A stretch of 64,000 nt of DNA from positions 192,001 to 256,000 of IMG/VR virus record IMGVR_UViG_3300045988_180880, one strand, 5' to 3'. A model generated the notes under the pieces. That model was not told the origin of the DNA. It ran no database searches and saw only the letters and a program-made list of their open reading frames with translations. How positions within the stretch are numbered: position 1 is the first letter of the stretch; each line of letters opens with the position of its first letter. This DNA is from a virus. Made by a program: the position numbers and the translations under genes. Positions 23,901-60,681 of this stretch are shown one piece after another.

Positions 23901-26604
23901 AATCAATGCTGTTCAGTCTAATCTTGATAAGACCAATATTTCATTAGAGAATCATATTGCAGATAAGAAGAATCCTCATGAAGTAACGAAGGAACAAGTA
24001 GGTCTAGGTAATGTAGATAATACATCTGACTTAGATAAACCTGTTTCTCATTATCAACAGGATGCTCTTGATGAACTTGAAAGAAGACTTCAAGGTTCTA
24101 TTGATGGTTCTGGTTCTGATCTTAGTGCTCATATTTCAGATTTTAATAATCCGCATAAAGTAACTAAGGATCAGGTTGGACTTGGTAATGTAGATAATAC
24201 AGCTGACAAGGATAAACCTATTTCTGATGCTACACAGAAAGCTTTGGATAGTATTAAGACAGAAACTAATACTATTATCGAAACTCATATAGCAGATAAG
24301 AATAATCCTCATGAAGTAACTAAGGAACAGATTGGATTAGGTGAAGTAACAAATGATGCTCAAGTAAAACGTTCAGAGATGGGCGTAGCTGGGGGAGTTG
24401 CTACACTTGACCAAGAAGGCAAAGTTCCTAGTTCTCAATTACCTAGCTTTGTAGACGATGTTATTGAAGTAGATTCTTACGATAACTTGCCTACTACAGG
24501 TGAAGCTGGAAAGATTTACGTAACCAAAGACACTAACCTAACCTATAGATGGTCTGGTTCTCGATATATTGAAATTTCTGCTTCCTTAGCCCTCGGAGAA
24601 ACTAGCTCAACCGCATATCCAGGTGACAAGGGAAAAGAAACAACTGATAAGGTTAATACTCACGTAGCTGATCTTAATAATCCTCACCAAGTAACTAAAG
24701 AACAGGTTGGACTTGGAAATGTAGATAATACATCCGACCTTGATAAGCCTGTTTCTAATGCTACTCAAGAATTAGTAGACAACACTAAGAAAGAACTTGA
24801 GGATCTGATTACTTCTAATGAGGGAGGTCTAGATAATCATATTAAAGATTTCAACAATCCTCATAAGGTAACTAAAGATCAAGTAGGTCTAGGTAACGTT
24901 GATAATACTTCAGATAAAGATAAACCTTTGTCTGATGCAGCTAAAGAAGCTATCAACGAGGTTAAGACTCTAATTACTTCTTCTGGAACTGACTTAAGCA
25001 ATCATATTAAAGATTATACAAATCCTCATAGAGTAACTGCAGAACAAGTAGGTCTCGGAAATGTAAATAATACTTCCGACCTTGACAAACCTATTTCTAA
25101 TGCTACTCAGAAGGAACTTGATAAACTTGACGCTAAGATTGATAAGATTAATACAGATCAGGGAACAGATCTTAGTGCTCACTTGAGAGATTTCAGTAAT
25201 CCTCATAAAGTAACTAAAGAACAAATTGGACTCGGAAATGTAGATAATACTGCAGATCTCGATAAACCAATATCTACTGCTACACAAAAAGCAATTGATG
25301 ATGCCAAAGCAGCTAATAATACTGCTTTAGATAATCATGCTAATCGTACAGATAATCCTCATAAGGTAACTAAGGATCAAGTAGGTTTAGGTAACGTTGA
25401 TAATACAGCCGATATTAATAAACCTGTATCTGTAGCACAGCAGAATGCTCTTGATACTTTATCTAATAGTTTAAATACAGCTATTAATAATCACGTAGGT
25501 AATACTAATAATCCTCATCAAGTAACTAAAGAACAAGTAGGTCTCGGAAAAGTAGATAATACATCTGACTTAGAAAAGCCTATTTCAGTAGCAACTCAAA
25601 ACGCTATTTCTGAAGTTGTTTCTAATCTGGATAAACATATTGCAGATAAGAACAATCCTCATGAAGTAACAAAAGAGCAAATTGGACTTGGTAGAGTTGA
25701 TAATACATCAGACCTCGAGAAACCTATTTCAACAGCTACTCAGGTTGCTCTTGATAAGAAGGCTGAACTTGGACCTGATGGAAAAATACCTGAAAGTCAA
25801 TTACCTGAAAGAACAATGCATAGTTTGTTCTATAAGGGTACTTGGGATGCTGAAAGGAATTTACCAACACTAGCTAATGGAGATAAGGCACAAGATGGTG
25901 ATTACTATTTAGTTAATAATGATGGTGAGTCCTTTGGATATAAATTCATGGTAAATGATATTATATTCAATGCCAGTGGAATTTGGTATAGAATGATGGG
26001 CTCTAATAAGAGAGATAATCCTACTGAATTTAAGATTACTAAATTCACAGCAGATAGAACTTTATTAGAGAGAGGTGAATCAACAGAAATTACTCTTGAA
26101 TGGGAATATCAATTGACCCCAAGTGGACAAATTAATTTCCAATTCATAGATACTCATGATATTCCTGTTGAGGAACGTACTTATAAGATTACTGCCACTG
26201 GAGGACAAACATTCACATTGAGAGGTTCGTATCTAAGTGAAGTTGCAACAGCTACTTTAACGATTGATACAGCTGATAAGGTTTATGTAGGTGCATCAAG
26301 TAATTCTGCTCCTACTGACTCTGACTTTATAGCAATGAATTCTTTCTTCTCCTTCGGTGATAATGAATTCCCATTCACTCCTATTGATTGTTCAGGAGGT
26401 AAGTATATTTACGTAGCAATTCCAACAGAAGAGTATAGTAAGTATAGAATCTATTGTAATAATTATCCTGTTGATGATGTAACAGTATACTCTAGACGTA
26501 TAACTAACATCTTTACTGGATATACTGATTATACAATTACTAAACTTGCTAATCTCTATCATGGAATACTAAATATTGAAGTTAAATTAATTGATAAAAG
26601 ATAA
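17953..26604 (+). CDS. giant tail fibre protein (2883 aa) built from repeats
   Basis: At least 22 copies by eye of NPH(K/Q/E)VT(K/A)(E/D)Q(V/I)GLGNVDNT(A/S)D..KP(V/I)S. Also a coiled-coil tandem duplication and triplicated ~80-aa modules. Confidence 0.85.
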   Translation: MALNFADRLVSNNPSAYGIVRAIEVSGHKTVSSLSALYKIPDCILSDTGDNSGNDSLGQLWYVIDAREVYQLVNWEKRNEAGGWKPYLSGVITDEALEEILKTKQDKLIAGEGISISEDNVISCTIDTSLFRMVDELPSLEEAETNKIYLLRKENNIGELQSYTEYIVTIKVDEEGKEIKEWEKIGEYDLSIELAPYLKIEDAEKTYVKKENIVDSFEGGDPKEQVLSAEKGKELKGLIDSLEERKVDSVTATPGKGIIVEGTHNDPTIGVLRDPESEGFFTIEETGLKLSGVQDAIDEAVGELTDRVELESDVVYNINEIFPGEGKGENGDQWHIQYAAAKLDAFLPAEKKVPGIKVKFINLDGNWRTFTFNGGYFLDGRNWSYDITSNDFTELATENLPTATPESNGVMSKEDKAKLDGISETINKDVDDKIAEVKETIDNYTVNGYKISTNPSLDRNDIGLGNVTNDAQIKRSEMGVPKGVATLGEDGKVPESQLPDSVLGNVKYQGVWDAVNNVPKLELNDFDSNGHYYIAINKGSQFGYDFDPGDWVINSNGRWVKIDNVDSVKSVNGQIGIVELGIEDIPNLKETLDSKATNDDFNRHLTDYKNPHKVTKDQVGLGNVDNTADKDKPVSDATQALIDQTRTVLENKISELQTNTEADLEVFRSEFENKLAELAAKEEADIVAVNNSLKEAKTELQNNIDNLASKTENDLTVAKKELDNKISELSTKTESDLSTLRADLESSISVTKTELEKSISELASKTENDLNTAKSELEKAISDLTAKEEADIVAVNNALSEAKKELENSISSLASKTENDLSLATKDLNNKISELATKTESDLSTLRADLESSISVTKTDLESKITELATKTDAKFQATDSKIEATKTELQTNIDNLSHRHDDDMKDIRREIEEATAGSNEALNTHIQDKSNPHQVTKEQVGLGNVTDDAQVKRSEMGMPEGVATLDATGKVPSSQLPSFVDDVIEVDSFDLLPETGETGKIYVTKDTNLTYRWSGSQYVEISESLALGETSSTAYPGDKGKATTDKVNAHTSDYNNPHKVDKAQVGLGNVDNTADLDKPVSNATQELVDNTKKELEEKINNSGNDLQDNIDKIDERVTNIEDSIAQPGGLATLDDAGKVPLEQLPSLVDDVIEVDSFEHLPEAGEVGKIYVTKDTNLLYRWTGVKYVEVSESLHLGETADTAYAGDKGKETTDKVNSHISDFNNPHKVTAEQVGLGNVDNTSDINKPVSTAQQEALDAVKTELEEKINNSGSDLQGNIDKIDERVTNIENSVGAPDGIATLDSEGKLEVSQIPNEALNVIEGKYMTETQFTDSEGVEFIPRHNTIYIDSIGGSNKLYRWDGFKYVEVSDSDNVTEAIDNHIKDFNNPHKVTAEQIGLGNVDNTADIDKPISTAVQEALDTVNTKVTEHTENKENPHGVTAEQIGLGNVDNTADYDKPVSKATQDEIDRIDGRIDTIDNSIGVPSGIATLDGNGKLTDSQIPDKTINVLVGKLMSETEFKDEEGNTYEPRTGVIYIDTVSGTEKIYRWNKYEYVEISNTELLEGALNSHVQDKNNPHQVTKEQIGLSEVTNDAQVKRSEMGTPEGVATLNENGKIPVEQLPGQVDEVFGIDRFVSTKTDIPSSRLVIGSTYYVEDEKKIYTAISETELDEGATPDKGVIYSNRETNIIYRWDGAELVEIGNPIHLGEVAGTAYPGDKGKATTDKVNAHVADFENPHQVTKEQIGLGNVDNTSDADKPISSAVQEALDAVNKEVSEHKADKNNPHEVTKAQVGLGNVDNTADLDKPVSNATQELVDNTKKELDTKIDNHTSDFNNPHKVTKEQVGLGNVDNTADINKPVSVAQQALVDSTKAELKKDIGDIEKDVTNHIADKNNPHEVNKLQVGLGNVDNTSDINKPVSIAQQAALDKLKSDLESIIGSTGTDLSAHLKDFDNPHKVTKDQVGLGKVDNTADLEKPVSVATQEAINAVQSNLDKTNISLENHIADKKNPHEVTKEQVGLGNVDNTSDLDKPVSHYQQDALDELERRLQGSIDGSGSDLSAHISDFNNPHKVTKDQVGLGNVDNTADKDKPISDATQKALDSIKTETNTIIETHIADKNNPHEVTKEQIGLGEVTNDAQVKRSEMGVAGGVATLDQEGKVPSSQLPSFVDDVIEVDSYDNLPTTGEAGKIYVTKDTNLTYRWSGSRYIEISASLALGETSSTAYPGDKGKETTDKVNTHVADLNNPHQVTKEQVGLGNVDNTSDLDKPVSNATQELVDNTKKELEDLITSNEGGLDNHIKDFNNPHKVTKDQVGLGNVDNTSDKDKPLSDAAKEAINEVKTLITSSGTDLSNHIKDYTNPHRVTAEQVGLGNVNNTSDLDKPISNATQKELDKLDAKIDKINTDQGTDLSAHLRDFSNPHKVTKEQIGLGNVDNTADLDKPISTATQKAIDDAKAANNTALDNHANRTDNPHKVTKDQVGLGNVDNTADINKPVSVAQQNALDTLSNSLNTAINNHVGNTNNPHQVTKEQVGLGKVDNTSDLEKPISVATQNAISEVVSNLDKHIADKNNPHEVTKEQIGLGRVDNTSDLEKPISTATQVALDKKAELGPDGKIPESQLPERTMHSLFYKGTWDAERNLPTLANGDKAQDGDYYLVNNDGESFGYKFMVNDIIFNASGIWYRMMGSNKRDNPTEFKITKFTADRTLLERGESTEITLEWEYQLTPSGQINFQFIDTHDIPVEERTYKITATGGQTFTLRGSYLSEVATATLTIDTADKVYVGASSNSAPTDSDFIAMNSFFSFGDNEFPFTPIDCSGGKYIYVAIPTEEYSKYRIYCNNYPVDDVTVYSRRITNIFTGYTDYTITKLANLYHGILNIEVKLIDKR

Positions 26605-32979: not shown

Positions 32980-33285
32980 ATGGATTTTGTATCAGTATTT
33001 TCAACATTAGCTGCTTTAGTGGCTGGTGTTCCTGTTGTTACACAGGCAATTAAGAAACTTATAGGTAAAGAACTTCCAGGGTGGGCTAATCAATTAATTT
33101 CTTGGATAGTTGCCATTGGATTATGTATGTTCGGTTGGTTTTTCGATCTTGGATGTCTTGCTGAAGCTTCTTGGTGGCAATCTCTCATAGTAGGCGCTGG
33201 TGTTGGATTAGCTAGTAACGGTGTATTTGATATCGCTCTAGTTCAGGGAATACTTGAACTTATATTCGGAAAAATAAAAAAGTAA
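32980..33285 (+). CDS. holin-like membrane protein
   Basis: 101 aa with about three hydrophobic segments and a charged C-terminus (GKIKK), directly upstream of a peptidase gene. Confidence 0.5.
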   Translation: MDFVSVFSTLAALVAGVPVVTQAIKKLIGKELPGWANQLISWIVAIGLCMFGWFFDLGCLAEASWWQSLIVGAGVGLASNGVFDIALVQGILELIFGKIKK

Positions 33286-33287
33286 TT

Positions 33288-33869
33288 ATGAGATCTTACG
33301 GTTATATTAAAACAGAAAACCTAGAAAGTTACTCAGAATATAAACCACAACCTATCACACTTCCGGCCGAATATAAACTCAAAGATATCGGCAAAGTGTG
33401 GGATCAAGGTAGTGTCGGAAGCTGTGTTAGTCATTCAATAGCAGAAATGTATAATTTTTATCAGCTAAGTCATGGAAAAACTCTAGAGAAAAAGCCTGAT
33501 TGGTTATACTATCTTAGAGCTGATAAAACAATAGATGGAATGATGCCTGCTGAAGGTTTCGAGTTAATGAAAACGGCCGGAGAAATAAAAATCTTCTCAA
33601 GAATATCAACTATCGAAGGAATTAAACATGCAGTAATAACAAATGGACCTGCACTTATAGCTGTTATTGTAAGAAACGGAGAACGTGATGATTTCTGGAA
33701 TGGTTCTGAAAACTTAGGAGGACATGCGATAAGTATTGTTGGTTTCTCTAGAGATGGATTTATGATAAAAAATTCTTGGGGTTATGGATATGCAGAGTCC
33801 GGTTTTTCTGAGATGAGCTATGAAGATGCTGGAAAAGTAATTCGAGAAGCTTGGACTATAATAGAATAA
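33288..33869 (+). CDS. papain-family (C1-like) cysteine peptidase, candidate endolysin
   Basis: DQGSVGSCVSHS (catalytic Cys context), GGHAISIVGF (His) and IKNSWG (Asn-Ser-Trp) in canonical order. Confidence 0.65.
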   Translation: MRSYGYIKTENLESYSEYKPQPITLPAEYKLKDIGKVWDQGSVGSCVSHSIAEMYNFYQLSHGKTLEKKPDWLYYLRADKTIDGMMPAEGFELMKTAGEIKIFSRISTIEGIKHAVITNGPALIAVIVRNGERDDFWNGSENLGGHAISIVGFSRDGFMIKNSWGYGYAESGFSEMSYEDAGKVIREAWTIIE

Positions 33870-33875
33870 AAAAAG

Positions 33876-33912
33876 AGACTAGTAAAGGGTTTAATTTTCC
33901 CAATACTAGTCT
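33876..33912. terminator. bidirectional hairpin terminator between convergent genes
   Basis: AGACTAGTA (33876-33884) / TACTAGTCT (33904-33912), with A-run and T-run flanks. Confidence 0.55.
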
Positions 33913-33922
33913 TTTATTTTCT

Positions 33923-34603
33923 TTATATCCTCTCTATAAATACCTCATAATCATCTTTACAATACCAACTTGGACATGTATGAGGATTTCCATGTCTATT
34001 TCCTTTTCCTCGGTTTATATAACTTTTCCATCTATATATTGTATCAGATTTCTTAAGAGCTTTCCACCAAACATCAAGTGTCGTTTTTATCCATGAACCT
34101 TTCTCGGCTATTATGTCTGATGGATTAACTAAAGGTTTATTATTATCGTAGTCTCTCAAGTGATGCCAAATATAAGGTCCAGTATATACAAATTTCTTCG
34201 GCCTTGGAGAATATACGGCGATGAATTTTTGGTCGTCAGAATAATCATCATCTCCTGTGTAACAAAAATCTACTTGAATCTCTTTTATCCCGACCCTCCT
34301 TAGTATCGCCGTTTTTTCATCAGGCCGTAAATTATAATACTCATCTCTTATTATCTTTTTCCCAGTCAAATCTCTAAGATAAAAGAATCTACCATTACCT
34401 TCTTTCCCAGGGATCATATCTTTAGGAGACTTACCTAATAAAAAAGTTTCAATATAACCTTTGGGAAATGCATAAAATCCCTTCCTAACTGGAGCTGTAT
34501 GAAATCCTCGAAAAGGTGAATCCCCAGGGAGTGATCCCTCTTTATGATCCTGTGGAGATAAAGTACCCCACCTAAAAAATTCATAACTATTCCTCTTTTT
34601 CAT
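33923..34603 (-). CDS. hypothetical protein
   Basis: ORF-track ORF with a complex Trp/Tyr-rich sequence; no recombinase motifs. Confidence 0.6.
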   Translation of the reverse strand: MKKRNSYEFFRWGTLSPQDHKEGSLPGDSPFRGFHTAPVRKGFYAFPKGYIETFLLGKSPKDMIPGKEGNGRFFYLRDLTGKKIIRDEYYNLRPDEKTAILRRVGIKEIQVDFCYTGDDDYSDDQKFIAVYSPRPKKFVYTGPYIWHHLRDYDNNKPLVNPSDIIAEKGSWIKTTLDVWWKALKKSDTIYRWKSYINRGKGNRHGNPHTCPSWYCKDDYEVFIERI

Positions 34604-34910
34604 AAACTCTATTTTTAAAAGTTACAGCCGAAAATCTCTTCTTTACTACTTTTAAGACTTTTTTCTCCAAAGATCGATACTCATTAGAAGAATAATCACG
34701 TTTTAATTCAATATATTCCCAAGGCTCGTCATAAATAAATTCCCAATCAGATGTGCACTTAATTAATTCAGCTGTCCATGGATCTGAATGTCTCCACCTA
34801 AGATAAATACAATAACCTTGAGATGAAATCGGATCAAGAAAATAATAATAACATTGACTTGGACACCATATTAAATCCTCTATCCAATAACCTAATAATT
34901 GTTCGTTCAT
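34587..34910 (-). CDS. hypothetical protein
   Basis: ORF-track ORF. A CCTTATATATG motif lies 25 nt upstream on the minus strand. Confidence 0.6.
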   Translation of the reverse strand: MNEQLLGYWIEDLIWCPSQCYYYFLDPISSQGYCIYLRWRHSDPWTAELIKCTSDWEFIYDEPWEYIELKRDYSSNEYRSLEKKVLKVVKKRFSAVTFKNRVYEKEE

Positions 34911-34935
34911 ATATAATATACTGTTTTTTCATTAA

Positions 34936-34946
34936 CATATATAAGG
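34936..34946 (-). promoter_or_regulatory. candidate promoter CCTTATATATG for 34587..34910
   Basis: Perfect motif family core on the minus strand, 25 nt before the ATG at 34910. Abuts inverted repeat A. Confidence 0.4.
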
Positions 34947-34969
34947 AAATAAACGTTCCTTTAAATCAG
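34945..34969 (+). repeat. inverted repeat A (GGAAATAAACGTTCCTTTAAATCAG)
   Basis: Its perfect 25-bp reverse complement is at 35614-35638. The core TAAACGTTCCTTTAA is shared with 39628-39648 and 40315-40335. Confidence 0.9.
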
Positions 34970-35272
34970 GATGGTAGTCACAGAACTGTACAAATATCTT
35001 TAACTCCAGTATCTGCTTCAGATTGGATATTATCCGGAAATGTTAATGGAATCTTATTCACTATAAATTCTCCCGAAATATCTACCTCTGTAGATTTATC
35101 AAACACTATACCAAAGGAAATTAATGTACGTGTAATTGCAACCTATTCTTACAGAAGTAATTCTGGTGGGATAGGTAAATGGATGGTAGGTTCTGCTGAG
35201 TCAAATAGTGTATCATTTTCTCAAGGGGAAACAGGAAGTAAAACGATTTCAGTTATTGGAAGACCTTATTAA
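34946..35272 (+). other. start-less coding cassette 1L (EINVPLNQ + ~100 aa beta-rich domain)
   Basis: Open frame from the IR to TAA at 35270-35272. The track ORF 34823..35272 gains its Met only by running antisense through 34587..34910. Confidence 0.55.
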
Positions 35273-35289
35273 ATTAATTTCCTTCTATT

Positions 35290-35637
35290 CTATAATACTT
35301 TTTCAGTTCTAATATTAATTGTTGTTTCTTTATCTTTAAATATTGTAAAAGTACTATTAATATTTGTAATAATATATTTATTAGGACTTTCTACTGATCC
35401 TCCATCTATTATTCTATAAGTTCCAACTCTTAATGTATGGGTACTAGAGTAACTAGAAGAACCCTCTTCATTAGTGATTGGTGTAGTAATTTCAGATTGT
35501 ATGCCATCATCTTCATTTTTTATAATAATAAATAGATGAATGTATTCTTCTATATCTATATTAAACCATTTCCAGTCTATATTTAAAGTTCCTAAATTTA
35601 AAATCTTACCACTCTGATTTAAAGGAACGTTTATTTC
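35290..35637 (-). other. start-less coding cassette 1R (EINVPLNQ + ~107 aa)
   Basis: Minus-strand frame is open from the IR to TAG at 35290-35292 (115 codons). There is an in-frame TGA two codons upstream of the IR, no ATG, and the ORF is absent from the ORF track. Confidence 0.55.
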
Positions 35638-35638
35638 C
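35614..35638 (-). repeat. inverted repeat B
   Basis: Perfect reverse complement of 34945-34969. Confidence 0.9.
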
Positions 35639-35645
35639 GATCAAT

Positions 35646-35660
35646 TCCTTATTAATGTAT
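35646..35660 (+). promoter_or_regulatory. candidate promoter TCCTTATTAATGTAT
   Basis: Motif family member, 25 nt upstream of the ATG at 35685. Confidence 0.4.
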
Positions 35661-35684
35661 ATTAAAATTAAATAAATTAATCAT

Positions 35685-36413
35685 ATGAAGACAGGAATTG
35701 AAACATTAATTTCAGAGGTTGGAAAAAGAATTACTAACAAAACCCAAGTAGAAGGAGGAATTATTTCTGGTTTAGGAATAAATAAAACTAATGGAAAAGA
35801 ATACGTTATTATAAGCGTTTGTGGATCATCGAACATGACGAAAGATCAACTTAATGATCTTTGCGATATTAAAATTATTACTGAAAAACTTATTACAGAG
35901 ACATTCGATTCTAATGGAATTCCAATGTTTTCTTATTGTACAATAGACGAATTCTTTAATTATTGGAATATCGTTAATGATGAAGAAATTAAAAGTTCGA
36001 TAAATTTAACTTTTAAAGAAGCAAAAGAATTATTTTCCTCAACAATATCTTGGGATATAAAAGAGAAGATCTTAAAAATTTATTCAAGAAGACAACTTGA
36101 AGGTCTTCCAGAAAAAATAGAATATCCAAAAGTACCACAAGATTATCCAGCTGAAAAATTTAGAGATAGTGCTAGAGCTTTTAAGGAACTAATTTGGTTA
36201 GTTAAAGAATATACCAAAGCATCAGCTCTTCAAGAACCTAACTGGAATGATTACTCACAAAATAAATTTGCTATTGTGAGATGTGGTGAAGCAGTAATGA
36301 TTTCGAAAGAAAAAACTTTCTTTCCAATAGCCTTTCTCTCTAAAGAAGTTGCTCAAGTATTCTTAGAAGATCATAAAGAGTTATTAGAAGAATATTATAT
36401 GATTGGAAAATGA
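35685..36413 (+). CDS. hypothetical protein
   Basis: ORF-track ORF with an upstream motif. Confidence 0.6.
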   Translation: MKTGIETLISEVGKRITNKTQVEGGIISGLGINKTNGKEYVIISVCGSSNMTKDQLNDLCDIKIITEKLITETFDSNGIPMFSYCTIDEFFNYWNIVNDEEIKSSINLTFKEAKELFSSTISWDIKEKILKIYSRRQLEGLPEKIEYPKVPQDYPAEKFRDSARAFKELIWLVKEYTKASALQEPNWNDYSQNKFAIVRCGEAVMISKEKTFFPIAFLSKEVAQVFLEDHKELLEEYYMIGK

Positions 36414-36625
36414 AAAAATTATTGATTATCCTAATTTTAATATTAGTTTCCAGTTGTGAAGTAGATCTAGAAGAGTATTCTGGATGGATTATTAAAGAAA
36501 AACGTCGAGAACCTTTAGGACTTAATTTTATTATTAGTGATCCAAACAATAATAAAAATTGGAAAATTTTAATAGTTCAAAATTATACATATAAAAAATA
36601 TAATATTGGAGATACAATAAAATGA
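36410..36625 (+). CDS. small lipoprotein
   Basis: MKKLLIILILILVSSC lipobox; ATGA overlap with the upstream gene. Confidence 0.55.
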   Translation: MKKLLIILILILVSSCEVDLEEYSGWIIKEKRREPLGLNFIISDPNNNKNWKILIVQNYTYKKYNIGDTIK

Positions 36626-37467
36626 AAGAATTAAAAACAGCTTCCCTCTCAGAAATTCCAGAGAGATTAGAAAAATCATTAACTCCGGAAAATGGGTATT
36701 CACGAAAAACAAAGAATATCCTAGTAAGATATGCTAGATGGTCGTTAACTTATAATAAGATAATGATGAAGTCTGATACTAAGTATATAAATTTTGAATA
36801 TAGTGTTGTTGGAGTTTATCCGTATATTTATCTTATCCCAATTATTAAAGTATATAAGTTAGATCGAATAATTGGAAATAACCTAGTTTATTCAGTTATC
36901 GATACTATAAAAGATCCGAAAGTTTGTTTTGATATCCCGGCTCTTATAGAATTAGGAGAAAAGCATGGAGTAGAGTTTAGACAATATCGTGGAAAAGGTC
37001 CAAATAAAAAACCCATGGCGAGAGTAATGCTAAGAAAATTCACGGATATAGAGAGCTCGTATTTTTACCTTGAAGATTACATTTCAACAGATGATATAAT
37101 AATTGAAACTTTCGATGGACTTAAGAGCTCAGAACAACGTGATATATTCTTAGAACTAGGAACGCCATGTTTTTGTATGACGTTAGATTCTGAAACAAAA
37201 GAATGGATTTTTTCTCTTAATCCTACTATTGGATCCTTTCCTGAAGATATAAATTTTCAAGGATATCCAGATGATTGGTCAAACGAGGGAATAATTCAGA
37301 GATATCAAGAATTTTCCGAAGATCTTCAGAAACCACGTCAAAAAGTAACTCCAGAATCGGTAGCTGAAGAAAAACGATTGGAGATGGAGAGAAGAAAAGA
37401 ACAGAAACGTACTAAAAATAGGAATAATGATAGATCTAAGAAAATATGCAATATTTCCGGAAAGTAA
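36622..37467 (+). CDS. hypothetical protein (basic C-terminus)
   Basis: ORF-track ORF; ATGA overlap with the upstream gene. Confidence 0.6.
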   Translation: MKELKTASLSEIPERLEKSLTPENGYSRKTKNILVRYARWSLTYNKIMMKSDTKYINFEYSVVGVYPYIYLIPIIKVYKLDRIIGNNLVYSVIDTIKDPKVCFDIPALIELGEKHGVEFRQYRGKGPNKKPMARVMLRKFTDIESSYFYLEDYISTDDIIIETFDGLKSSEQRDIFLELGTPCFCMTLDSETKEWIFSLNPTIGSFPEDINFQGYPDDWSNEGIIQRYQEFSEDLQKPRQKVTPESVAEEKRLEMERRKEQKRTKNRNNDRSKKICNISGK

Positions 37468-37609
37468 TAATTTTTTGGATAGTAGTACTCCAGGGTTAGA
37501 AGAATTAGAAAGATTTAATAAGATCATGGAAGAAACGCAGAAAAATTTGAATATAAAATCAGGATCAAGAAATGATATAATTTATGAAAAAGAAGCTGAC
37601 AAAAAATAA
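37427..37609 (+). CDS. hypothetical small protein (start uncertain)
   Basis: ORF-track ORF that overlaps both neighbours. Confidence 0.35.
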   Translation: MIDLRKYAIFPESNNFLDSSTPGLEELERFNKIMEETQKNLNIKSGSRNDIIYEKEADKK

Positions 37610-38123
37610 ATGGATAACTTCAAAAGGTGAGGAATTATCTTTAGAAGAAATGAACAGTTCTCATATATTAAATGCAATCAGAAAAATAAAATCTTCAACA
37701 GGATGGAGAGAAGATTGGCTTCCTATCTTAGAAGCAGAACTAACTAGAAGAAGTATGATAGCAAGAACAGATGATTATGAGAAAAAGATCATAACTGATG
37801 AGGAAAAAATGTATTTCTTATGTACTTCATGTGAATACCAAATGTTATCTGTTGAAGGTGGTAGTTTATCTGATATACTGAATATTACTATTAATGATCA
37901 AGTAAAAAGTTATATAAGAGATAATATTTTTTGTATACCTCTTGAACAATCTAAGGAAAATTTTATTTCGGAGATGGATAAATTAATAAGAAAAACTAGA
38001 AGTAATTCTAAAGAAGATGCTGAGAAATTTATGAGTTATTATGAAAAATATCTTCTAATTAATGTCTTTTCAAAAGAATGGAGTAATTTTATGAACTTAA
38101 TGTTAGGTCGTCATGGAAAGTAG
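37584..38123 (+). CDS. hypothetical protein
   Basis: ORF-track ORF; operon packing. Confidence 0.55.
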   Translation: MKKKLTKNKWITSKGEELSLEEMNSSHILNAIRKIKSSTGWREDWLPILEAELTRRSMIARTDDYEKKIITDEEKMYFLCTSCEYQMLSVEGGSLSDILNITINDQVKSYIRDNIFCIPLEQSKENFISEMDKLIRKTRSNSKEDAEKFMSYYEKYLLINVFSKEWSNFMNLMLGRHGK

Positions 38124-38349
38124 AATCAAAGAATCAATTATTAAACACTTAGAGTATCAAAAAAGTATTGCTAAAGATCCCGAAGGACCGTTTATATGTT
38201 GTCCTATGCCTGGTAAAAATTCATGGACCATTTCTGAAATAATAGAGGAAGTAAGAAAAGAGACAGAATTTGGAGAGGAATTTGCAGATGATGTTATAGG
38301 ATTAGCTATTGATATTTTATGTCGAAAGAATCAATCAATGAATGGATAA
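38113..38349 (+). CDS. hypothetical protein
   Basis: ORF-track ORF; operon packing. Confidence 0.5.
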   Translation: MESRIKESIIKHLEYQKSIAKDPEGPFICCPMPGKNSWTISEIIEEVRKETEFGEEFADDVIGLAIDILCRKNQSMNG

Positions 38350-38534
38350 ACTCTCAAGAACTAACAACCGAAGATCTTGATTTTATGTGGGATTTTTGTA
38401 TAGTTTTCGGTCATCCTGTAATATCTAAACTTGGAATGGCTTCTTGGAAAGATTTACGTCCAGACTTAATTAAACAAATTCCGAACGAATATGAGAAGAT
38501 GGTAGAAAAAGTAATATATAATAATAAGGAATAA
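38319..38534 (+). CDS. hypothetical protein
   Basis: ORF-track ORF; operon packing. Confidence 0.5.
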   Translation: MSKESINEWINSQELTTEDLDFMWDFCIVFGHPVISKLGMASWKDLRPDLIKQIPNEYEKMVEKVIYNNKE

Positions 38535-38992
38535 TGAAATTATTGAATTTAGAGGAATATTTAACTCCAGAAAGTATAAAAGTACATGATATTAATCAAT
38601 GGGATTCATTTTTATTTAACTTACTTGAAGAAGAAAATATATATCCACCTAAACTTACTGGACAATGGATAACAGATAAAAATAGATTTTATGAAAAGTT
38701 TGTATGTTTGAAAGAAGTAACTGAGAATACTTATTATCCTATGTATTGTAGACAATATAATCCAATTGAAATTACTATATATCATGAAAAGAATGGATTA
38801 TATGATTTTAAATGTATGTTAATAAGTATTGACGATACAGCTTTTGGGTTTGGATGGGAAAATTTAGAAAGACTTAGCATAGATAAATATGTTCTAGAAA
38901 TTATATCTTGGATTGATAAAGTAGATAAATTAGATCATGAAGAATTAATTAAATATGGACTTTCTTTAGGTGCAGAAGATTTAAGTTGGTAA
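38534..38992 (+). CDS. hypothetical protein
   Basis: ORF-track ORF; its ATG overlaps the upstream stop. Confidence 0.55.
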   Translation: MKLLNLEEYLTPESIKVHDINQWDSFLFNLLEEENIYPPKLTGQWITDKNRFYEKFVCLKEVTENTYYPMYCRQYNPIEITIYHEKNGLYDFKCMLISIDDTAFGFGWENLERLSIDKYVLEIISWIDKVDKLDHEELIKYGLSLGAEDLSW

Positions 38993-39004
38993 TTAAATAT
39001 AAAC

Positions 39005-39118
39005 ATGAATGATTTTAAAATAAAAGATATAGTAAAAGGATTAATGATTTGTACTTTTATTTCAGGGTTTTTAATAGGTATCTTATCAGTTTTAATTTTA
39101 ATTTATTCAACAATATGA
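39005..39118 (+). CDS. small membrane protein (37 aa, below track cutoff)
   Basis: ATG at 39005. Sequence MNDFKIKDIVKGLMICTFISGFLIGILSVLILIYSTI. ATGA overlap with the next gene. Confidence 0.4.
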   Translation: MNDFKIKDIVKGLMICTFISGFLIGILSVLILIYSTI

Positions 39119-39576
39119 AGAAAGAATTATATGATGAGTATGTAAAAGCTTGGGATATTTGGAAGAAAAGAACTGATGAATATTTTCAAAAAAGAGTTGA
39201 AATAATTAAAGATAAAACTCTCTCCGAAGAATCTCAATCAAAACTTTTAGACACATTAGCAGAGAATTTTGATAGAAAAGGTTTTACAGAAGAATATTTT
39301 GGACCTTGGACGGAAATAAGAGATGTTACTGATCTATTAAATCCTGACTTCATTTTACCAGGAATAGGCAAGAATTATTCAGAACTTCAAATAGCGAAAG
39401 ATGATGTTCCAGGAAATTGGGGTAAGATTGCTAGAGATTGTTATGATCCTAAAAGATATGGAAAAATAATTGGACTTGGATATGATTCCGGAGATTATTA
39501 TCTTATTATAGAAAACCCTGATACTGGAGAAGAATCAACAATCTTAATGAATACTAAGTATACTATTGATTCATAA
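39115..39576 (+). CDS. hypothetical protein (track ORF 39049..39576 trimmed to first ATG)
   Basis: In-frame ATG at 39115 (MKKELYDEY...). The upstream part of the track ORF starts at TTG and overlaps the small TM ORF. Confidence 0.55.
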   Translation: MKKELYDEYVKAWDIWKKRTDEYFQKRVEIIKDKTLSEESQSKLLDTLAENFDRKGFTEEYFGPWTEIRDVTDLLNPDFILPGIGKNYSELQIAKDDVPGNWGKIARDCYDPKRYGKIIGLGYDSGDYYLIIENPDTGEESTILMNTKYTIDS

Positions 39577-39584
39577 AAGAATAT

Positions 39585-39620
39585 AAGACTAGGATTTTAT
39601 TTTCCTAGTCTTATTTTTCT
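39585..39620 (+). terminator. hairpin terminator
   Basis: 10-bp perfect stem AAGACTAGGA (39585-39594) / TCCTAGTCTT (39603-39612), then ATTTTTCT. Confidence 0.6.
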
Positions 39621-39627
39621 CTTACCA

Positions 39628-39648
39628 TTAAACGTTCCTTTAAGTCAA
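39628..39648 (+). repeat. inverted repeat C (TTAAACGTTCCTTTAAGTCAA)
   Basis: Its reverse complement at 40315-40335 has one mismatch. An imperfect extension outward includes the flanking hairpins. Confidence 0.85.
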
Positions 39649-39963
39649 TATGCAAAAGCTGTTTATGTTAATCTCATTGTTACTTGGAGTGGAGATCCAA
39701 GTAGACCTTATGGAGCACACTTTACTTTAACTAGTAATGGTTTTGTACACGGTTTTCAAGAAATATCTAGTTCCGGTGTTCTTCCAGGAGATACAGAAAC
39801 TTTCTCAATACAAATAATAAATGATTATAATGTTTTTTCGTGGAGTTCTTCTGGTGTTTGGTATGCATATCACGATGATCTAAAACAAATACAATCTACA
39901 ATTAGTCCTAGTTCTGGAAATTTTAGCGCTAATAATGACATATACATAACTTTTAATACATAA
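39628..39963 (+). other. start-less coding cassette 2L (LNVPLSQ + ~104 aa)
   Basis: Frame is open from 39577 to TAA at 39961-39963, with no in-frame ATG. It is in frame with 39115..39576 across that gene's TAA. Confidence 0.5.
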
Positions 39964-39984
39964 AATTAAAGATAAAAATAATTT

Positions 39985-40335
39985 TTAATTGTTCTCTGGA
40001 AGTATTGGAAGACGAATATCTATATAAAAAACTTGTTCAGACTCTGAAAGAGTTATATTACTAGGAGTACATACTCCCAATTGACTATATAGACTTCCAG
40101 CCGAGTATAAAAATTCAAGATAATTTGATCCAAAAAATTCTGAATCTATTTTTTGAATTTTAGTATCCGTATATGCACTTCCCATTCCAGATCCTTTAAA
40201 TTCAAAAGAAGGTATTCCAACTTTTCTTAAAGTTAACATCCAATTAATTTGTCTTCCATTACTAGAAGAAGGTATATTTATTTTAAATGTCCAGTATTTA
40301 ATTCTTTCACCCTCTTGATTTAAAGGAACGTTTAA
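39985..40335 (-). other. start-less coding cassette 2R (LNVPLNQ + ~109 aa)
   Basis: The track ORF 39985..40239 extends upstream, without a stop, to the IR. An in-frame TAA lies 10 codons upstream of the IR. Confidence 0.5.
40315..40335 (-). repeat. inverted repeat D
   Basis: Reverse complement TTAAACGTTCCTTTAAATCAA; 20/21 match to repeat C. Confidence 0.85.
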
Positions 40336-40339
40336 AGTA

Positions 40340-40377
40340 AAAGAAAAATAAGAGATAGGATTTTATTTCCTATCTCT
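40340..40377 (-). terminator. hairpin terminator of 40370..40876
   Basis: 10-bp perfect stem AGAGATAGGA (40351-40360) / TCCTATCTCT (40368-40377). Loop and arms resemble the 39585 hairpin. Confidence 0.55.
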
Positions 40378-40876
40378 TTTTCACACTCTCCGAAATAACC
40401 TCTTCTAATTCACCTTCTGTAATATAATCCATTAAAGTTTCTTCGAATTCTACATTTATCCAAGCTTGCAACATAGCTGTATTTTCAAAATCTTCATAAC
40501 TCAGATTTCTTAACTTAACTATCTGATCTACGGCATGTCTTGTTTCGTGATAAAATGTAGTTTTGATATTCTTAACCAAACTTTTATAATCCTTTTTGGC
40601 AATAAAAGGTCTATTTCTTCTAGAGTCAATGTTTACTATTACTACTACTTGATCGAATCCTGTTGTTTTATTAATAATTCTATAAGTAGATGTTCCGGAT
40701 GTTGAACTTATTGTTTCTATAAGTTCTTCTGCTCTTGAATTTTTCTTTACCGGAATTTCCATTTTATGATTCTTTACAAACTTAGTAGTAAACCACCTCG
40801 TCATTTCTTTCTGTGTTCCAATTCCAAAATTAATTTCTACTCTATAAGAATCATGTTTTAATTTACTTATTTTCAT
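40370..40876 (-). CDS. hypothetical protein with HExxH motif
   Basis: FYHETRHAVDQ; otherwise no recognisable family. Confidence 0.55.
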   Translation of the reverse strand: MKISKLKHDSYRVEINFGIGTQKEMTRWFTTKFVKNHKMEIPVKKNSRAEELIETISSTSGTSTYRIINKTTGFDQVVVIVNIDSRRNRPFIAKKDYKSLVKNIKTTFYHETRHAVDQIVKLRNLSYEDFENTAMLQAWINVEFEETLMDYITEGELEEVISESVKKR

Positions 40877-40950
40877 ATTCTTAAAAATTTAAACTCCTTA
40901 AGCTTTTTATTATTGCTTAAGGAGTATTGTTTTACATTATTTATTTTCTC

Positions 40951-41368: not shown

Positions 41369-43270
41369 TTAACTTACTGTAGTATGTTTTGTTTTTATTA
41401 CTTTGGTTTTCACTATTTCATTCAAAAGTTTCGGCATTTCCTCTAAGTTATATCCGATATCTATATAAGTATCAAACATATCTTCAACACCGTAAACAGC
41501 ATCTATACTAATCTGAATTATTCCGAATCCAAGTTTTTCTGCTTCTTTTACTTTTGCGGCAGTATCTTTTATTGCTGGAATTCCTCCATATCCATTTGCA
41601 CAAGGGCTACCATCAGATATCACAAACATAATACAATTCTCTTTTGTGAACTTTCTAACTCTCTTTGCTACTTCTAGAATTGCATCTCCATCTCGATTTT
41701 GGGATTTTGCACAACTCTTAGATAATGAAAACTTAGGATTATAATGACTTCCTTCTCGATACACACTCAGATTTATATATCCGATCGAACCAATATCTGC
41801 AGTATGTCCATAAATATATAGATCAACTCCCAAACTTTTTCCGAAGGTTTCATTTAGAAGTATTGCAGCCTGTCTCGCTAGGATTTCCTTTTTTCCACCC
41901 ATAGATCCAGACTCATCAATAAGAACACATATAGTTGATTTATTGGTTCTAACATGTCCCTGTCTTAGGTAAACTTGTGGAACTCCTTGATATGCTTCTG
42001 CAAGTTTTGTCGTATCTAGAATTCCAGACCTACAACCTTGGATATTAAAATCATAGTTCTTATCTGTTCCTGTCAATATCTTTTTTAATCTAGGAACATA
42101 TTTTTGAACTGCTCTCACATCACATAAATAACTATTTCTATCCCCTTTTGGTTTTTCAAAGAATACCTTATCAGAATCACCACGTTCTACTGTTCCCTCT
42201 AAGATTTTCATTGTTAGGCTGTCCTTTAATGATAATAACCTAGATACTTTAGACTTATCTATCTTTCTTCCAGAATCTAAGTCAACTCCATACATTATAC
42301 TAGTTATAGATTCAGTATCATTAATTAAGAATAATATTTTTTTTAATTCCGCCGGATCTATATCAGATAATTTCTTCTCCTTAATTATCTTAAATATACT
42401 TTCAGAAACACTACAAATATCTTTAAGATTTTCTGGATATGGAGTTATCTTTTCTTGAACTTCTTTGTATACCTCAGAATACTCCTCAAGAATCTCCTCT
42501 TCTATTAATCCAGGAAATCTAAGTATCCCTATTAATGTTTTAAAGAAAAGAATCAACTTCCTCTCCCTCATCATATTAAGTCTTCCCTCTAGAGTCTTAG
42601 AATTATAACTTTTCGCACAATCAATAAAATCTTGAAATCCTGGTCGTTCTGTTAGTAATAAATCCTCAACTCTATTATCCTCAAGAAGATTTATGAAAAT
42701 TTTAATAATCTCTCCTTCTTCAGAAGTATATTTTCCACTTATAAAACTAAGAAAATTCAAATAAACTCTTAAGTAGGTATATCTTAAGTGTGCAGCCTCA
42801 TGAAGACCAAATCCACAGAAGGCATTTATTTTTGTTTCATTATCTTCGGTGGAGTCAAATATCTTAGAAGGGACTGCTATTCTTCTTTCGGAATTATCTC
42901 TTTTCTCTTCTGAAAAATAATCTGAATACGAACTACTTTCATCACTACTCTCATTTAAATTTACTTTAATCGGGAAAGGAAAATCCATTATAGTTATCAT
43001 ATCTTTTACAGAACTATAAGCCTTTTCAATTAACTTAGATAATTGTGCATCCTCTTCCTTTCCAACAGATGAATATGAATAATAACTTTCTCCATACCAA
43101 GAGCTTCTATTTATAGTTCTACTTAGCTCTCCAGAATTTCCGACAGATGATTTATAGGATTTTCTAAATATACTCCTACCCCATCTACCATCATCTTCGT
43201 CATCATAGTAATCATCATAATCCTTTCTTTTCCACCAAGGATAATATGAGGTTGAAAAATGTTTACTCAT
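41369..43270 (-). CDS. HExxH + vWA domain protein (CobT-like)
   Basis: GLHEAAHLRY in the N-terminal half; MIDAS-like VLIDESGSMGG and a vWA-like C-terminus. Adjacent to an AAA+ ATPase gene. Confidence 0.7.
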   Translation of the reverse strand: MSKHFSTSYYPWWKRKDYDDYYDDEDDGRWGRSIFRKSYKSSVGNSGELSRTINRSSWYGESYYSYSSVGKEEDAQLSKLIEKAYSSVKDMITIMDFPFPIKVNLNESSDESSSYSDYFSEEKRDNSERRIAVPSKIFDSTEDNETKINAFCGFGLHEAAHLRYTYLRVYLNFLSFISGKYTSEEGEIIKIFINLLEDNRVEDLLLTERPGFQDFIDCAKSYNSKTLEGRLNMMRERKLILFFKTLIGILRFPGLIEEEILEEYSEVYKEVQEKITPYPENLKDICSVSESIFKIIKEKKLSDIDPAELKKILFLINDTESITSIMYGVDLDSGRKIDKSKVSRLLSLKDSLTMKILEGTVERGDSDKVFFEKPKGDRNSYLCDVRAVQKYVPRLKKILTGTDKNYDFNIQGCRSGILDTTKLAEAYQGVPQVYLRQGHVRTNKSTICVLIDESGSMGGKKEILARQAAILLNETFGKSLGVDLYIYGHTADIGSIGYINLSVYREGSHYNPKFSLSKSCAKSQNRDGDAILEVAKRVRKFTKENCIMFVISDGSPCANGYGGIPAIKDTAAKVKEAEKLGFGIIQISIDAVYGVEDMFDTYIDIGYNLEEMPKLLNEIVKTKVIKTKHTTVS

Positions 43271-43276
43271 AGTCTA

Positions 43277-44431
43277 TTAATAAGATAATATTGTTTTATA
43301 TACTGTACTTCTTTCTCCTTCCAAATTAGTTCCTTCATAGATTGGAAGATATACCATTTCCATAGCACTTTTCACACTCCAACCATCTGATACTAACTCT
43401 GAGATCATTAGTGTTTCTCGAATTGATATAGAAGTTGAGATCTCCTGTTTCTTTGAGAGTGATCTAATATTATTCGCTATCTTCACAATTGATCTAGCTA
43501 CTTCTTCATCAATTCCCGTTCTATTAACCAAAACATTTACTTCTTCTGTATCTGGTATAATATTAAGTTCAAGAGGAAAAAATCGATTAAGAAGTGCTCG
43601 GTCTATCATATTAGTTCCAGTATATTCAGAACCTATATTAGCTGTTGCAATAAATGTTACCTCTGGATGAATTTTAATACTTCTAACTCCTTTCCCACAA
43701 GCTATTTCAACATTCAATTCCCGTCTATCATCTAAACAAGGAAACAATACATTATTAGCCCCAAGAGAAGAACGATTTAACTCATCTAAGAGAATTACAC
43801 ACGGTTCTTGAATTACTTTAGTGAACTTAGCATAATCAAATATACTTTTTCCATCTTCTAAGCGATGAACTCCAAGTAAATTTGAAATAGGATCAATCAT
43901 AGAACCCATATCAAACACATGAAGAGGTATACCCATTCTAGAACAAACTTCTTTTACACAACTTGTCTTTCCAGAACCTGTAGGCCCTATAATCATCGTA
44001 TTAACATGTTTTTTTATATTTCTCACTAAGATTCTCCAATTATCAGGGGTCATATAAAATCCATCCTTTGTAGAACTTGGAGAAATTAGTGATGCATCTT
44101 TAAGAATTGTTTCGAGAATCGTATCTTTCTTTAAGGGATCTACGAAATCAATTCCAGTCAGAGTTTTATATTCTTTTTTAGCTTCTTCATCTTTATATGT
44201 TAATCTTTGAAATCCCTTTTGTGTATAAAACTTTCCACCTGAAGAACTAAGATTAAGAAAAGTTGAGATAAATATAGTACCTTCTGAATAAACATCTCTT
44301 ATCTTCTTAGGGCATTGTACATAAAGACTTGTAGATACATTAGAACCATCCTTCAATTTTTGTCCAGGGAGTGCTTTTACTTTCAAATTTCCTTTAACTA
44401 ATACTGTCTCTAAAAAATAATACTTACTCAT
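43277..44431 (-). CDS. AAA+ ATPase (CobS/MoxR, AAA_5-like)
   Basis: Walker A GPTGSGKTS, Walker B ILLDELNRS, FIATANIG, LLNRF. Confidence 0.8.
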   Translation of the reverse strand: MSKYYFLETVLVKGNLKVKALPGQKLKDGSNVSTSLYVQCPKKIRDVYSEGTIFISTFLNLSSSGGKFYTQKGFQRLTYKDEEAKKEYKTLTGIDFVDPLKKDTILETILKDASLISPSSTKDGFYMTPDNWRILVRNIKKHVNTMIIGPTGSGKTSCVKEVCSRMGIPLHVFDMGSMIDPISNLLGVHRLEDGKSIFDYAKFTKVIQEPCVILLDELNRSSLGANNVLFPCLDDRRELNVEIACGKGVRSIKIHPEVTFIATANIGSEYTGTNMIDRALLNRFFPLELNIIPDTEEVNVLVNRTGIDEEVARSIVKIANNIRSLSKKQEISTSISIRETLMISELVSDGWSVKSAMEMVYLPIYEGTNLEGERSTVYKTILSY

Positions 44432-58044: not shown

Positions 58045-58204
58045 CAATAATTACTATATTATTTATATAGTTTAAGACTATATCTTTTAATAAAATTTTT
58101 ATTAATTATTATACTTAGTCGTTGAACAAGTTTATTTTTACTTGATGCCGATTTATATTAATATCTTTCCGGCAATTTTAATAATTTAACGTGAGCTAAA
58201 TTTA
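58045..58204 (-). ncRNA. group I intron 4 (ORF-less, ~160 nt)
   Basis: On the minus strand: P-like AAATTGCCGGAAAG (58165-58178), Q-like AATCGGCATCAAG (58141-58153), R-like GTTCAACGACTAAG (58114-58127), S-like AAAGATATAGTCTTAA (58072-58087). 5' exon ends in U; intron ends in G. Confidence 0.65.
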
Positions 58205-59103
58205 ACCCACACGTACGTCTAGATACATGAAGTTTGTGTTGATCTTCACAGCCACATTGAGGACACCTCCAAGACAATTTATTATCCTCATCTATAATTT
58301 CTATCTCACCATCATATCCACAGTTAGAACAATAATCTGATTTTGTATTTAACTCTGCATAAGAAATATTATCATAGATGAACTTTATAACTTCTAAAAC
58401 TGCTTCGATGTTAGTACTGATATCTGCAGACTCTATGTAAGATATCATACCACCAGAACTATATGGTTGAAGTTCTGCCTCAAATTTTAACTTATCAAGA
58501 GGATTAATTTCTTCTTTTACATTAATATGATAACTGTTAGTAATATAAGATTCATCAGTTATGTTCGGTATAACTCCGAATCTATTCTTAAGACACTTTG
58601 CAAATTTATAAGTTGTACTTTCAATTGGAGATCCGTATACACTATATCCAAGACCATTCTCCTCAGATTTCCACTTATTACAAGCATCATTTAATCTTTG
58701 CATAATTTGTTTTGCAAGATCGATATGTTTTGTATGAGATTCCCCAGTTAATGCCATAACGCACTCATATAAACCAGCATAACCTAGAGAAATTGTACTA
58801 TACCCACCAAATAATAATGGATCAATCACTTCTCCTGGTTTTAATCTTGCAAAAGCTCCATGTTGCCATAATATAGGAGCTACATCTGATTTAATTCCAA
58901 GTAAACGTTTATGTCTAATTTGTAATGCTTTATGACATAATTCCAAACGTTCATCTAGAATTTCCCAGAACTTATCAATATCTCCTTCTGCAGATAATCC
59001 TGCATCAGGAAGTGATACTGTTACAACACCTTGATTTAGACGACCATAGAATTTATAATTTCCATTTTCATCTTTCCAAGGTGATAAGAAACTGCGACAT
59101 CCC
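58205..59103 (-). CDS. nrdD: nrdD exon 4
   Basis: (M)GCRSFLSPWKDENGNYKFYGR...ELCHKAL...CPQCG...RRTCG. Extends the track ORF 58158..58946 upstream, in frame. Confidence 0.8.
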
Positions 59104-59885: not shown

Positions 59886-60193
59886 ATGCTCGGGAAACAG
59901 TTTCCTTCTTTAAGTTCCTTCATTTTCTTTTCAGAAATATAATCAGGAACTAATCGTTTAGCTGAACACTTAGCAGCGAGTTTAGTAAGATACCAATATT
60001 TACTATTTTCATGTATATTATCTTCCTCAAGAGCATATATCAATTTAGGAAATGCAGGAGTTACAAATACTCCATCTTCATTAGGCATTCCTTGGATACG
60101 TTGTTCTAGGAATTCTTGAATTAACATGGCTAATTCTTCTTTATATTCTGAAGTTTCGCCTAGATACATAAATACTGTTAAAAATGGGGACTG
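59886..60193 (-). CDS. nrdD: nrdD exon 3
   Basis: QSPFLTVFMYLGE...KELKEGNCFPS. The track ORF 59813..60196 runs on into the intron. Confidence 0.8.
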
Positions 60194-60486: not shown

Positions 60487-60681
60487 ACCATTTGTGTTTG
60501 TCATACTATTAATTTGATAATTAAAAGTTTGAACTGAGTCTTTAACTTCTTTTTTCAAATCAATAGTTGCTAATTTCTCGCTAAGTTCTTCATCTAATCC
60601 AGCATCTTTATATTTTTTCAGATAACCATTATAACTATCTCTTACAAAAGGTGCTAGATGTGTTAATGTTATTGTACATCC
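60487..60681 (-). CDS. nrdD: nrdD exon 2
   Basis: GCTITLTHLAPFVRDSY...QTFNYQINSMTNTNG. Both flanks of the track ORF 60436..60708 are intron sequence. Confidence 0.75.

Follow-up and report, generated by a model that had tools for sequence, protein, structure and literature searches.

A two-cassette inverted-repeat segment as the probable store of a dispersed inversion system in a large human-gut phage

We analyzed a 64,000-nucleotide stretch of phage DNA with 31% G+C (positions 192,001 to 256,000 of IMG/VR record IMGVR_UViG_3300045988_180880; hereafter, the window), concentrating on a 694-bp segment at 34945-35638, termed Module 1, which we relate below to a dispersed multi-inversion system (shufflon). 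An earlier reading of the sequence, here called the original prediction, had described this segment as two convergent coding cassettes without starts, opened by inverted recombination sites. The segment is bounded by GGAAATAAACGTTCCTTTAAATCAG at 34945-34969 and its perfect reverse complement at 35614-35638 (25 nt), in agreement with that description; with two mismatches, the arms reach 32 nt (34945-34976 / 35607-35638; 94%), forming the top-ranked inverted repeat in the 12 kb examined. Read inward, both copies encode E-I-N-V-P-L-N-Q, and the frames run for 106 and 113 codons from the Asn codon to convergent stops at 35270-35272 and 35292-35290, located 17 bp apart as described. The right-hand repeat is preceded, two codons away, by a TGA (35643-35641). 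Upstream of the left repeat, the frame has a single Met (34823), which overlaps gene 34587-34910 on the minus strand at its 5′ end; both points again match the earlier account. The claim that neither cassette contains an in-frame ATG held for the right cassette, which has no Met, but not for the left one, where a single ATG (..GKWMVGS..) occurs 29 codons before the stop, too late to encode the domain. The features of Module 1 are as follows.

34945-34976, plus strand: left inverted-repeat arm, with core copy 1 (TAAACGTTCCTTTAA) at 34950-34964
34952-35272, plus strand: cassette K13 (left, start-less), NVPLNQ followed by a 100-aa beta-sandwich domain
34956-34957: putative crossover dinucleotide TT of core copy 1, placed by linkage analysis and the host-site palindrome
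35273-35289: 17-bp spacer separating the two convergent stop codons
35290-35631, minus strand: cassette K14 (right), NVPLNQ followed by 107 aa, with no Met and with the TGA two codons upstream of the repeat
35607-35638, minus strand: right inverted-repeat arm, with core copy 2 at 35619-35633

The 15-mer core TAAACGTTCCTTTAA is present four times without mismatch in the window (34950+, 35619-, 39629+ and 40320-). By chance, 0.42 copies would be expected at up to two mismatches, and four copies were reached in none of 100 shuffles. The four cores form two inverted pairs that delimit two modules alike in layout, at 34945-35638 and 39615-40348. From each of them, the inward frame AAC GTT CCT TTA opens an open reading frame (ORF), with lengths of 106, 113, 110 and 115 codons, and none of these four ORFs has a usable start codon in the window. 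The second module comprises the following features.

39615-40348: Module 2, sister segment, with cores at 39629-39643 (plus) and 40320-40334 (minus)
39631-39963, plus strand: Module 2 cassette K0, convergent with K5
40332-39985, minus strand: Module 2 cassette K5, convergent with K0

Module 2 is bordered, directly beyond its cores, by similar hairpins (TAGGATTTTATTT(T)CCTA..) at 39577-39613 and 40350-40381. They resemble terminators of convergent flanking genes, which suggests that Module 2 was inserted between two terminators.

A short segment with perfect terminal inverted repeats, accompanied in the window by a second segment with the same termini, could also be a miniature inverted-repeat transposable element or the remnant of an insertion sequence. 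We regard such an origin as extremely improbable. The outer flanks of Module 1 end in ..TATAA on the left and begin with GATCA.. on the right, with no direct repeat outside the arms and no target-site duplication, and no transposase family was detected among the window ORFs. Moreover, different copies enclose unrelated coding cassettes with which their termini share the reading frame, and the segments keep to fixed slots between the conserved blocks instead of appearing at new insertion sites.

An AlphaFold2 model of K13 (pLDDT 83.8) contains eight strands arranged as a beta sandwich, with the NVPLNQ linker disordered. Foldseek comparisons of this model to PDB and BFVD returned weak generic beta-sandwich matches (best E = 0.011, to CBM20, and 0.0035, respectively), too weak for us to claim a fold assignment. 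PHROGs and Pfam searches with the four cassettes and their neighbors gave no match, and neither did protein-pattern searches of IMG/VR for K13 and K14. A large protein collection contains both cassettes at 92-97% identity, joined at NVPL to other leaders. K13 (92-97% identity) is attached to different flanks in P0003-P0005 and adjoins the TerD block, one of the gene blocks introduced below, in three Logan contigs; K14 (94-97% identity) has different flanks in P0001 and P0002 and also in locus L162. For each cassette, three or four alternative flanks were seen. The leaders of K13 and K14 differ between genomes and represent read-through of whatever flank is present.

Relatives were located by scanning IMG/VR for the core. 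Most hits were single chance matches; the scan also gave contigs of up to 375 kb with two to five copies in inverted pairs, a layout seen in at least 20 related loci. Proteins identical to those of the window occur on metagenome contigs of 370-402 kb, and individual window proteins have index entries in ~2,500 blocks of the assembly collection. The presence of identical proteins on many large contigs points to a source genome of roughly 380 kb; judged by these matches, the phage is a very common human-gut phage of about 370-400 kb. A GenBank phage DNA search with 33000-40900 gave no match, and tblastn of the constant protein described below and the DNA polymerase against GenBank phages gave remote matches only.

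For comparison among relatives, conserved stretches of the window were named block A (up to 34976), block B (35615-39651) and block C (from 40305). Outside the modules, two of these correspond to the following features.

34587-34944, minus strand: right end of block A, with tail-fibre and lysis genes, the 107-aa gene 34587-34910 being the last; outer flank ACATATATAAGGAAA
35639-39628, plus strand: block B, nine ordinary genes without assigned function between Modules 1 and 2; flanks GGAATTGATCGGAAA (left) and TTTTTCTCTTACCAT (right)

In alignments with IMG/VR and ENA contigs, blocks A, B and C reach 96-99% identity, and each alignment ends at a core. The order and orientation of the blocks vary: in L034 and L049, forward B precedes reversed A, and in L094 reversed B precedes C, with block B inverting as one piece among relatives. 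For block A, identity is 97-99% in L015, L034, L049, L058 and L114 and ends at the core, and its outer flank ACATATATAAGGAAA is attached to at least eight different cassettes across relatives. A single common cassette type, in turn, had as many as five distinct outer flanks across five contigs. Per genome, at least 14 sites in both orientations are spread over about 45 kb. We counted 26 cassette types in 17 loci, to which later loci added more, giving at least 30 types population-wide; most measure 98-152 aa, and they are mutually unrelated or weakly related.

Reassortment is also evident at the block-C flank, located beside an identical 168-aa protein, where eight different cassettes occur across ten contigs (207-402 kb). 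Beyond these cassettes lie the DNA polymerase block or the TerD block (each in either orientation), a P-type ATPase, block B or a long fn3-repeat gene. Between ERZ27279498 and ERZ27279492, the block-C flank shows 0 substitutions over 3057 nt, yet the cassettes differ; rearrangement is, thus, faster than point mutation. Module 1 itself was recovered in human-gut contig OPDE01002305 (L162), in which positions 34945-35634 of the window (690 bp) are present at 99.4% identity. There, K13 instead of K14 adjoins the block-B flank GGAATTGATCGGAAA, while K14 adjoins the flank of the DNA polymerase block. This arrangement requires a flip of Module 1 itself and one further inversion, so that Module 1 occurs in both orientations when the window and L162 are compared.

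Genes between the sites include a P-type cation ATPase (L025 8640-10934), a TerD protein (L094 2201-2848), a family-A DNA polymerase (L025 4038-7577) and an RlaP-like nucleotidyltransferase (L013 675-2868). As these blocks lie between shufflon sites, they invert together with them. Near-empty slots were also observed: L034 contains two facing cores only ~50 bp apart (8346-8413; 27 and 23 codons), and at L114 15478 the core is followed by a 7-codon stub. Such slots suggest that cassettes can be lost.

In-frame cores within long genes were found in five relatives (L025, L069, L034, L018 and L114). The first of two constant genes encodes 969 aa in L025 and 866 aa in L069, and 755 codons are open upstream of the core in L034. 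Its product starts with MADLLIATKAFCNTLKAG..., carries Ser/Thr-rich repeats matching BACON and fn3_6 and ends with ...DSSNINVPLSQ, after which the cassette begins. A second, divergently oriented paralogue ends with ...SPSNINVPL(S/N/D)Q before its cassette (P0011, P0018 and P0022). The fused cassettes change from genome to genome, comprising K12, K2, K9 and K0 at the first gene and K4, K16, K20, K10 and K11 at the second. K20, found at the second constant gene in P0011 and P0022, is a 51-56% relative of K13, and P0012 and L114 carry K0, the left cassette of Module 2 in the window, as a fusion with the first constant part. Both expression genes of L114 are located between blocks A and B, the slot held in the window by Module 1; within the 64-kb window, neither constant gene is present. 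These BACON/fn3-repeat proteins may be exposed on the virion surface and may bind receptors or glycans. An AlphaFold2 model of P0022 computed with no alignment was unusable (pLDDT 42). Residues 25-214 of the L025 protein share 32% identity with a ‘lipocalin-like protein’ of crAss-like phage cr115_1, a resemblance that hints, as a second pointer beside the site likeness described below, at a Bacteroidales-associated lineage.

The gene anticipated in the original prediction, with a 5′ part ending at the NVPL motif, was, therefore, encountered in relatives (866-969 aa), with alternative cassettes following the core. Its broader proposal, an invertible segment with in-frame sites that swaps C-termini, agrees with the in-frame cores of relatives, the reassortment and the flip seen in L162. 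Only in part did the swap take the form envisaged: reassortment was found, but the module does not abut the gene that it serves, and the switched protein is not a recognizable tail fibre of the window.

The same data bear on a simpler view of K13 and K14 as ordinary small genes with non-canonical starts, for which the inverted repeat would be a shared promoter, operator or terminator. Both repeat copies are intergenic and lie beside divergent gene starts, and gene callers elsewhere give cassettes short ATG leaders (P0001-P0010). These leaders, however, vary by genome in the manner of flank read-through, K14 lacks a start codon in the window and the only start of K13 overlaps an antisense gene. 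In addition, the motif is an in-frame internal linker of 866-969-aa proteins, and promoter and terminator scans gave fewer promoter-like sites than shuffled controls, with none at the repeats. We consider independent small genes very improbable.

To locate the exchange point, linkage of each position to flank or cassette was analyzed over 70 sites, with GTTC at positions 6-9 required by the site filter; every plausible site in a separate site catalogue also carries GTTC at these positions. Positions 3-5 and everything upstream follow the flank class, position 10 mostly follows the cassette and position 20 onward follows the cassette class. Linkage, thus, switches from flank to cassette across positions 6-9, which places the exchange in or next to GTTC. 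The earlier division of the core into TTAAA-CGTTCC-TTTAA, with short arms around a 6-bp spacer, needs correction. The base preceding TAAACG varies between copies, and the ‘TTAAA’ arm is not conserved. The site is better read as 6-7-bp inverted half-sites flanking a central TT (TAAACG-TT-CCTTTAA). The core is conserved at synonymous positions across at least 30 otherwise unrelated cassettes. Back-to-back divergent sites (L018 11295/11353, L050 4327/4385 and L069 5431/5487) have degenerate left half-sites that read TATATG or TAAYTG instead of TAAACG, the variant always going with the flank; these copies may be weaker or inactive.

The one-base distance of the core from Mpi-type sites, stated in the original prediction, agrees with the comparison to Bacteroidales invertons. 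Capsule promoters of Bacteroides intestinalis are flanked by the inverted repeat GTTCGTTTAA, which overlaps the ARACGTTCGTN repeats at those regions that Mpi, a serine recombinase, inverts in B. fragilis (PMC8375218); this enzyme acts on 13 dispersed regions (PMC4747536). Scanning one genome per species for 185,579 bacterial species with the pattern AACGTTCNTTTAA-N170-200-TTAAANGAACGTT, we obtained 34 invertons, nearly all from Bacteroides, Mediterranea and Tannerellaceae. Their consensus, TTAAACG-TT-CGTTTAA, consists of perfect 7-bp inverted half-sites around a central TT and encloses segments of 171-195 bp. The phage core matches this repeat at 14 of 15 bases, a one-base difference, with the same inward orientation, and the central TT of the host site coincides with the linkage-mapped exchange interval. 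The host G at position 10 is present in a minority of the phage sites.

Reassortment at the cores, in-frame sites in long genes and the flipped module in relatives make it very probable that Module 1 is a two-cassette store in a dispersed multi-inversion system, or shufflon, of a human-gut phage. In the mechanism that we propose, each cassette opens with an in-frame TAAACG-TT-CCTTTAA (NVPL) and continues into a different ~100-150-aa beta-sandwich domain. Two sites are positioned near the 3′ ends of the two divergent BACON/fn3-repeat genes, and only cassettes joined there would be translated. Recombination between inversely oriented sites would invert all DNA between them, either a 0.7-kb module alone or many kb including DNA polymerase and other ordinary genes. 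Each inversion would swap the pairing of cassettes and flanks and, thus, could place a new C-terminal domain on an expressed protein, with cassettes reaching the expression genes through long-range inversions that flip the ordinary genes between. K13 and K14 would accordingly be parked between non-coding flanks in the window, with the expression genes elsewhere in the genome, and parked cassettes are presumably silent. The system may serve to vary a virion-surface adhesin or receptor-binding tip to match phase-variable host surfaces.

Several observations weigh against this interpretation. K13 or K14 at an expression site was not seen in the data examined, and the constant proteins had no match in PHROG and PDB. 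The Pfam families Resolvase, Recombinase and Phage_integrase were absent from the 61 window ORFs, as the original prediction of a window devoid of recombinase genes would have it, and from 24 further ORF families of loci covering the shufflon region of relatives. No recombinase genes were listed in gene tables within 10 kb of either window end, and serine-recombinase motif scans of all DNA retrieved were negative. A scan of IMG/VR with Mu Gin returned only enterobacterial Gin relatives and none for this phage; at least 270 kb of the phage genome and the host genome lay outside the scope of the recombinase search. Furthermore, core positions 10-17 show mixed linkage across the 70 sites, so that the crossover is bounded rather than pinned. 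The phage has C at position 10, where 66 of 68 host half-sites have G, and an inverton with a C-type core at 170-200-bp spacing was found in 0 of the 185,579 species genomes. Lastly, the rearrangement evidence consists of comparisons between samples.

Three of these points, namely that no recombinase gene was located, that linkage at 10-17 is mixed, as if crossovers were spread over a ~20-bp conserved block, and that all rearrangement evidence stems from between-sample comparisons, would also suit a scenario in which co-infecting relatives recombine at a conserved linker through ordinary homology or microhomology. The arrangements would then reflect long-term modular evolution with no programmed switch. 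We view this as the only serious rival and disfavor it as improbable. Efficient homologous exchange needs a minimal homology length above 15 bp, whereas the exact shared block measures only 15 bp, too short for such exchange. Rearrangement outruns mutation, given the 0 substitutions in 3057 nt beside different junctions, and synonymous positions of the core are conserved across the at least 30 unrelated cassettes. Moreover, the palindromic half-site and central-TT build of the core is near-identical to known invertase substrates. Seven of the ten long block-C contigs (L153, L155-L157 and L159-L161; 218-402 kb) end 2-12 kb from the shufflon, which hints at mixed junctions within samples, being consistent with them but no proof.

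Under the shufflon interpretation, with no enzyme gene beside the switch, the enzyme must be supplied in trans, either by another part of the ~380-kb genome or by the host. The site suggests an Mpi-type serine invertase acting in trans at the central TT, phage- or host-encoded, and a host that probably belongs to the Bacteroidales. The absence of the C-type inverton from the scanned bacterial genomes hints at either a dedicated, perhaps phage-encoded, enzyme or tolerance of the C by a host enzyme. That the phage lacks its own invertase and uses the Mpi capsule-switch enzyme of its host at one-base-variant Mpi sites is a rather unlikely scenario. If true, the same host enzyme would diversify attack and defense, and whole blocks of essential genes would be routinely inverted as a by-product.

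Switching of a phage surface-protein C-terminus by site-specific inversion is already known and classical in Mu, P1 and p15B. The Mu G/Gin, P1 C/Cin and p15B Min (six crossover sites) systems are compact at 3-4 kb, directly adjoin the expressed gene and lie next to their invertase gene. They share with the present system short inverted crossover sites in coding sequence, a constant 5′ part with alternative 3′ cassettes, convergent cassette pairs in one invertible segment and, probably, a serine invertase. By contrast, the phage studied here distributes at least 14 sites across ~45 kb, and its segments enclose ordinary genes, DNA polymerase among them. It has two expression genes and no nearby recombinase (a Hin-family invertase gene was not found adjacent), and its switched protein is of the BACON/fn3-repeat type, not a Mu S-type fibre. 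In the R64/IncI1 shufflon, the tyrosine recombinase Rci is encoded beside a contiguous 2-kb shufflon (pilV). Here, too, the C-terminal segments of a single surface protein are reassorted through several segments with many sites, and site conservation is asymmetric, one side going with the cassette and the other being variable. Unlike in R64, no tyrosine recombinase was detected with Pfam Phage_integrase in the window or the related loci, the palindrome is serine-invertase-like and the segments are non-contiguous.

Mpi invertons resemble the phage system in their site (14 of 15 bases), the inward repeats and the dispersed sites served in trans, as presumed here for the phage. They flip 171-195-bp non-coding promoter segments, whereas the phage sites lie in frame in coding sequence and delimit 0.7 kb to tens of kb, with C at position 10 where the host has G, and no Mpi homologue was found. 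A BV01-like Phocaeicola phage contains a tail-fibre shufflon of 1.7 kb with three cassettes, six variants and the motif TGGGAGAACT; it is temperate, of ordinary size and has an adjacent recombinase (PMC13596623, 2026 preprint). The likeness lies in what is described there, namely cassette inversion that varies the distal end of a carbohydrate-binding tail protein in a Bacteroidaceae-associated phage, with a proposed purpose of countering capsule phase variation (PMC13596623). The system described here differs in being genome-dispersed, with at least 30 cassette types in the pan-genome, a different site and no adjacent recombinase. In bacteria, programmed gene-altering inversions are widespread (Milman et al. 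2023, PMC9881135). A literature search, including by core sequence, found no published description of this phage inversion system. New aspects are its size and spread (~45 kb with at least 14 sites, the invertible segments enclosing housekeeping genes), the two expression genes and the at least 30 cassette types, together with the lack of a neighboring recombinase, a site only one base removed from the capsule-switch site of the presumed host clade and the occurrence in a highly prevalent ~380-kb gut phage.

The phage family is among the most often assembled large phages of human-gut metagenomes. A store of at least 14 tips per genome and at least 30 in the population, serving two surface proteins, would strongly shape host range and persistence. 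The store escapes annotation pipelines because the cassettes lack start codons, and the shufflon would explain why assemblies of these phages break at the region. Programmed inversion would here rearrange tens of kb of viral genome, beyond a small switch region. The near-identity of the site to Bacteroidales capsule switches, a strong hint at the host clade, offers a testable link between host phase variation and phage counter-variation.

Elsewhere in the window, tail-fibre genes (Peptidase_S74 and tail-fibre PHROGs) end at 32447 and are followed by a papain-like protein. The remainder consists mostly of small genes without assigned function, two MoxR-AAA/VWA modules and a split nrdD. A diversity-generating retroelement was considered and rejected, with no reverse transcriptase and no template/variable repeat pair. 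Genes 821-2899 and 45100-47124 encode paralogues of 692 and 674 aa with 62% identity, each located near its own pair of MoxR-type AAA ATPase and VWA genes (5497-8861 and 41369-44431), so that the module appears duplicated within the phage genome. The nrdD gene for anaerobic ribonucleotide reductase (~58100-62600, minus strand) is split into several ORFs interleaved with HNH/NUMOD4 homing-endonuclease-like ORFs, and the number and position of these inserts vary among L110-L113. Lastly, a 2883-aa ORF at 17953-26604 is internally repetitive at ~22.1-25.8 kb and shows many staggered self-like matches to L058.

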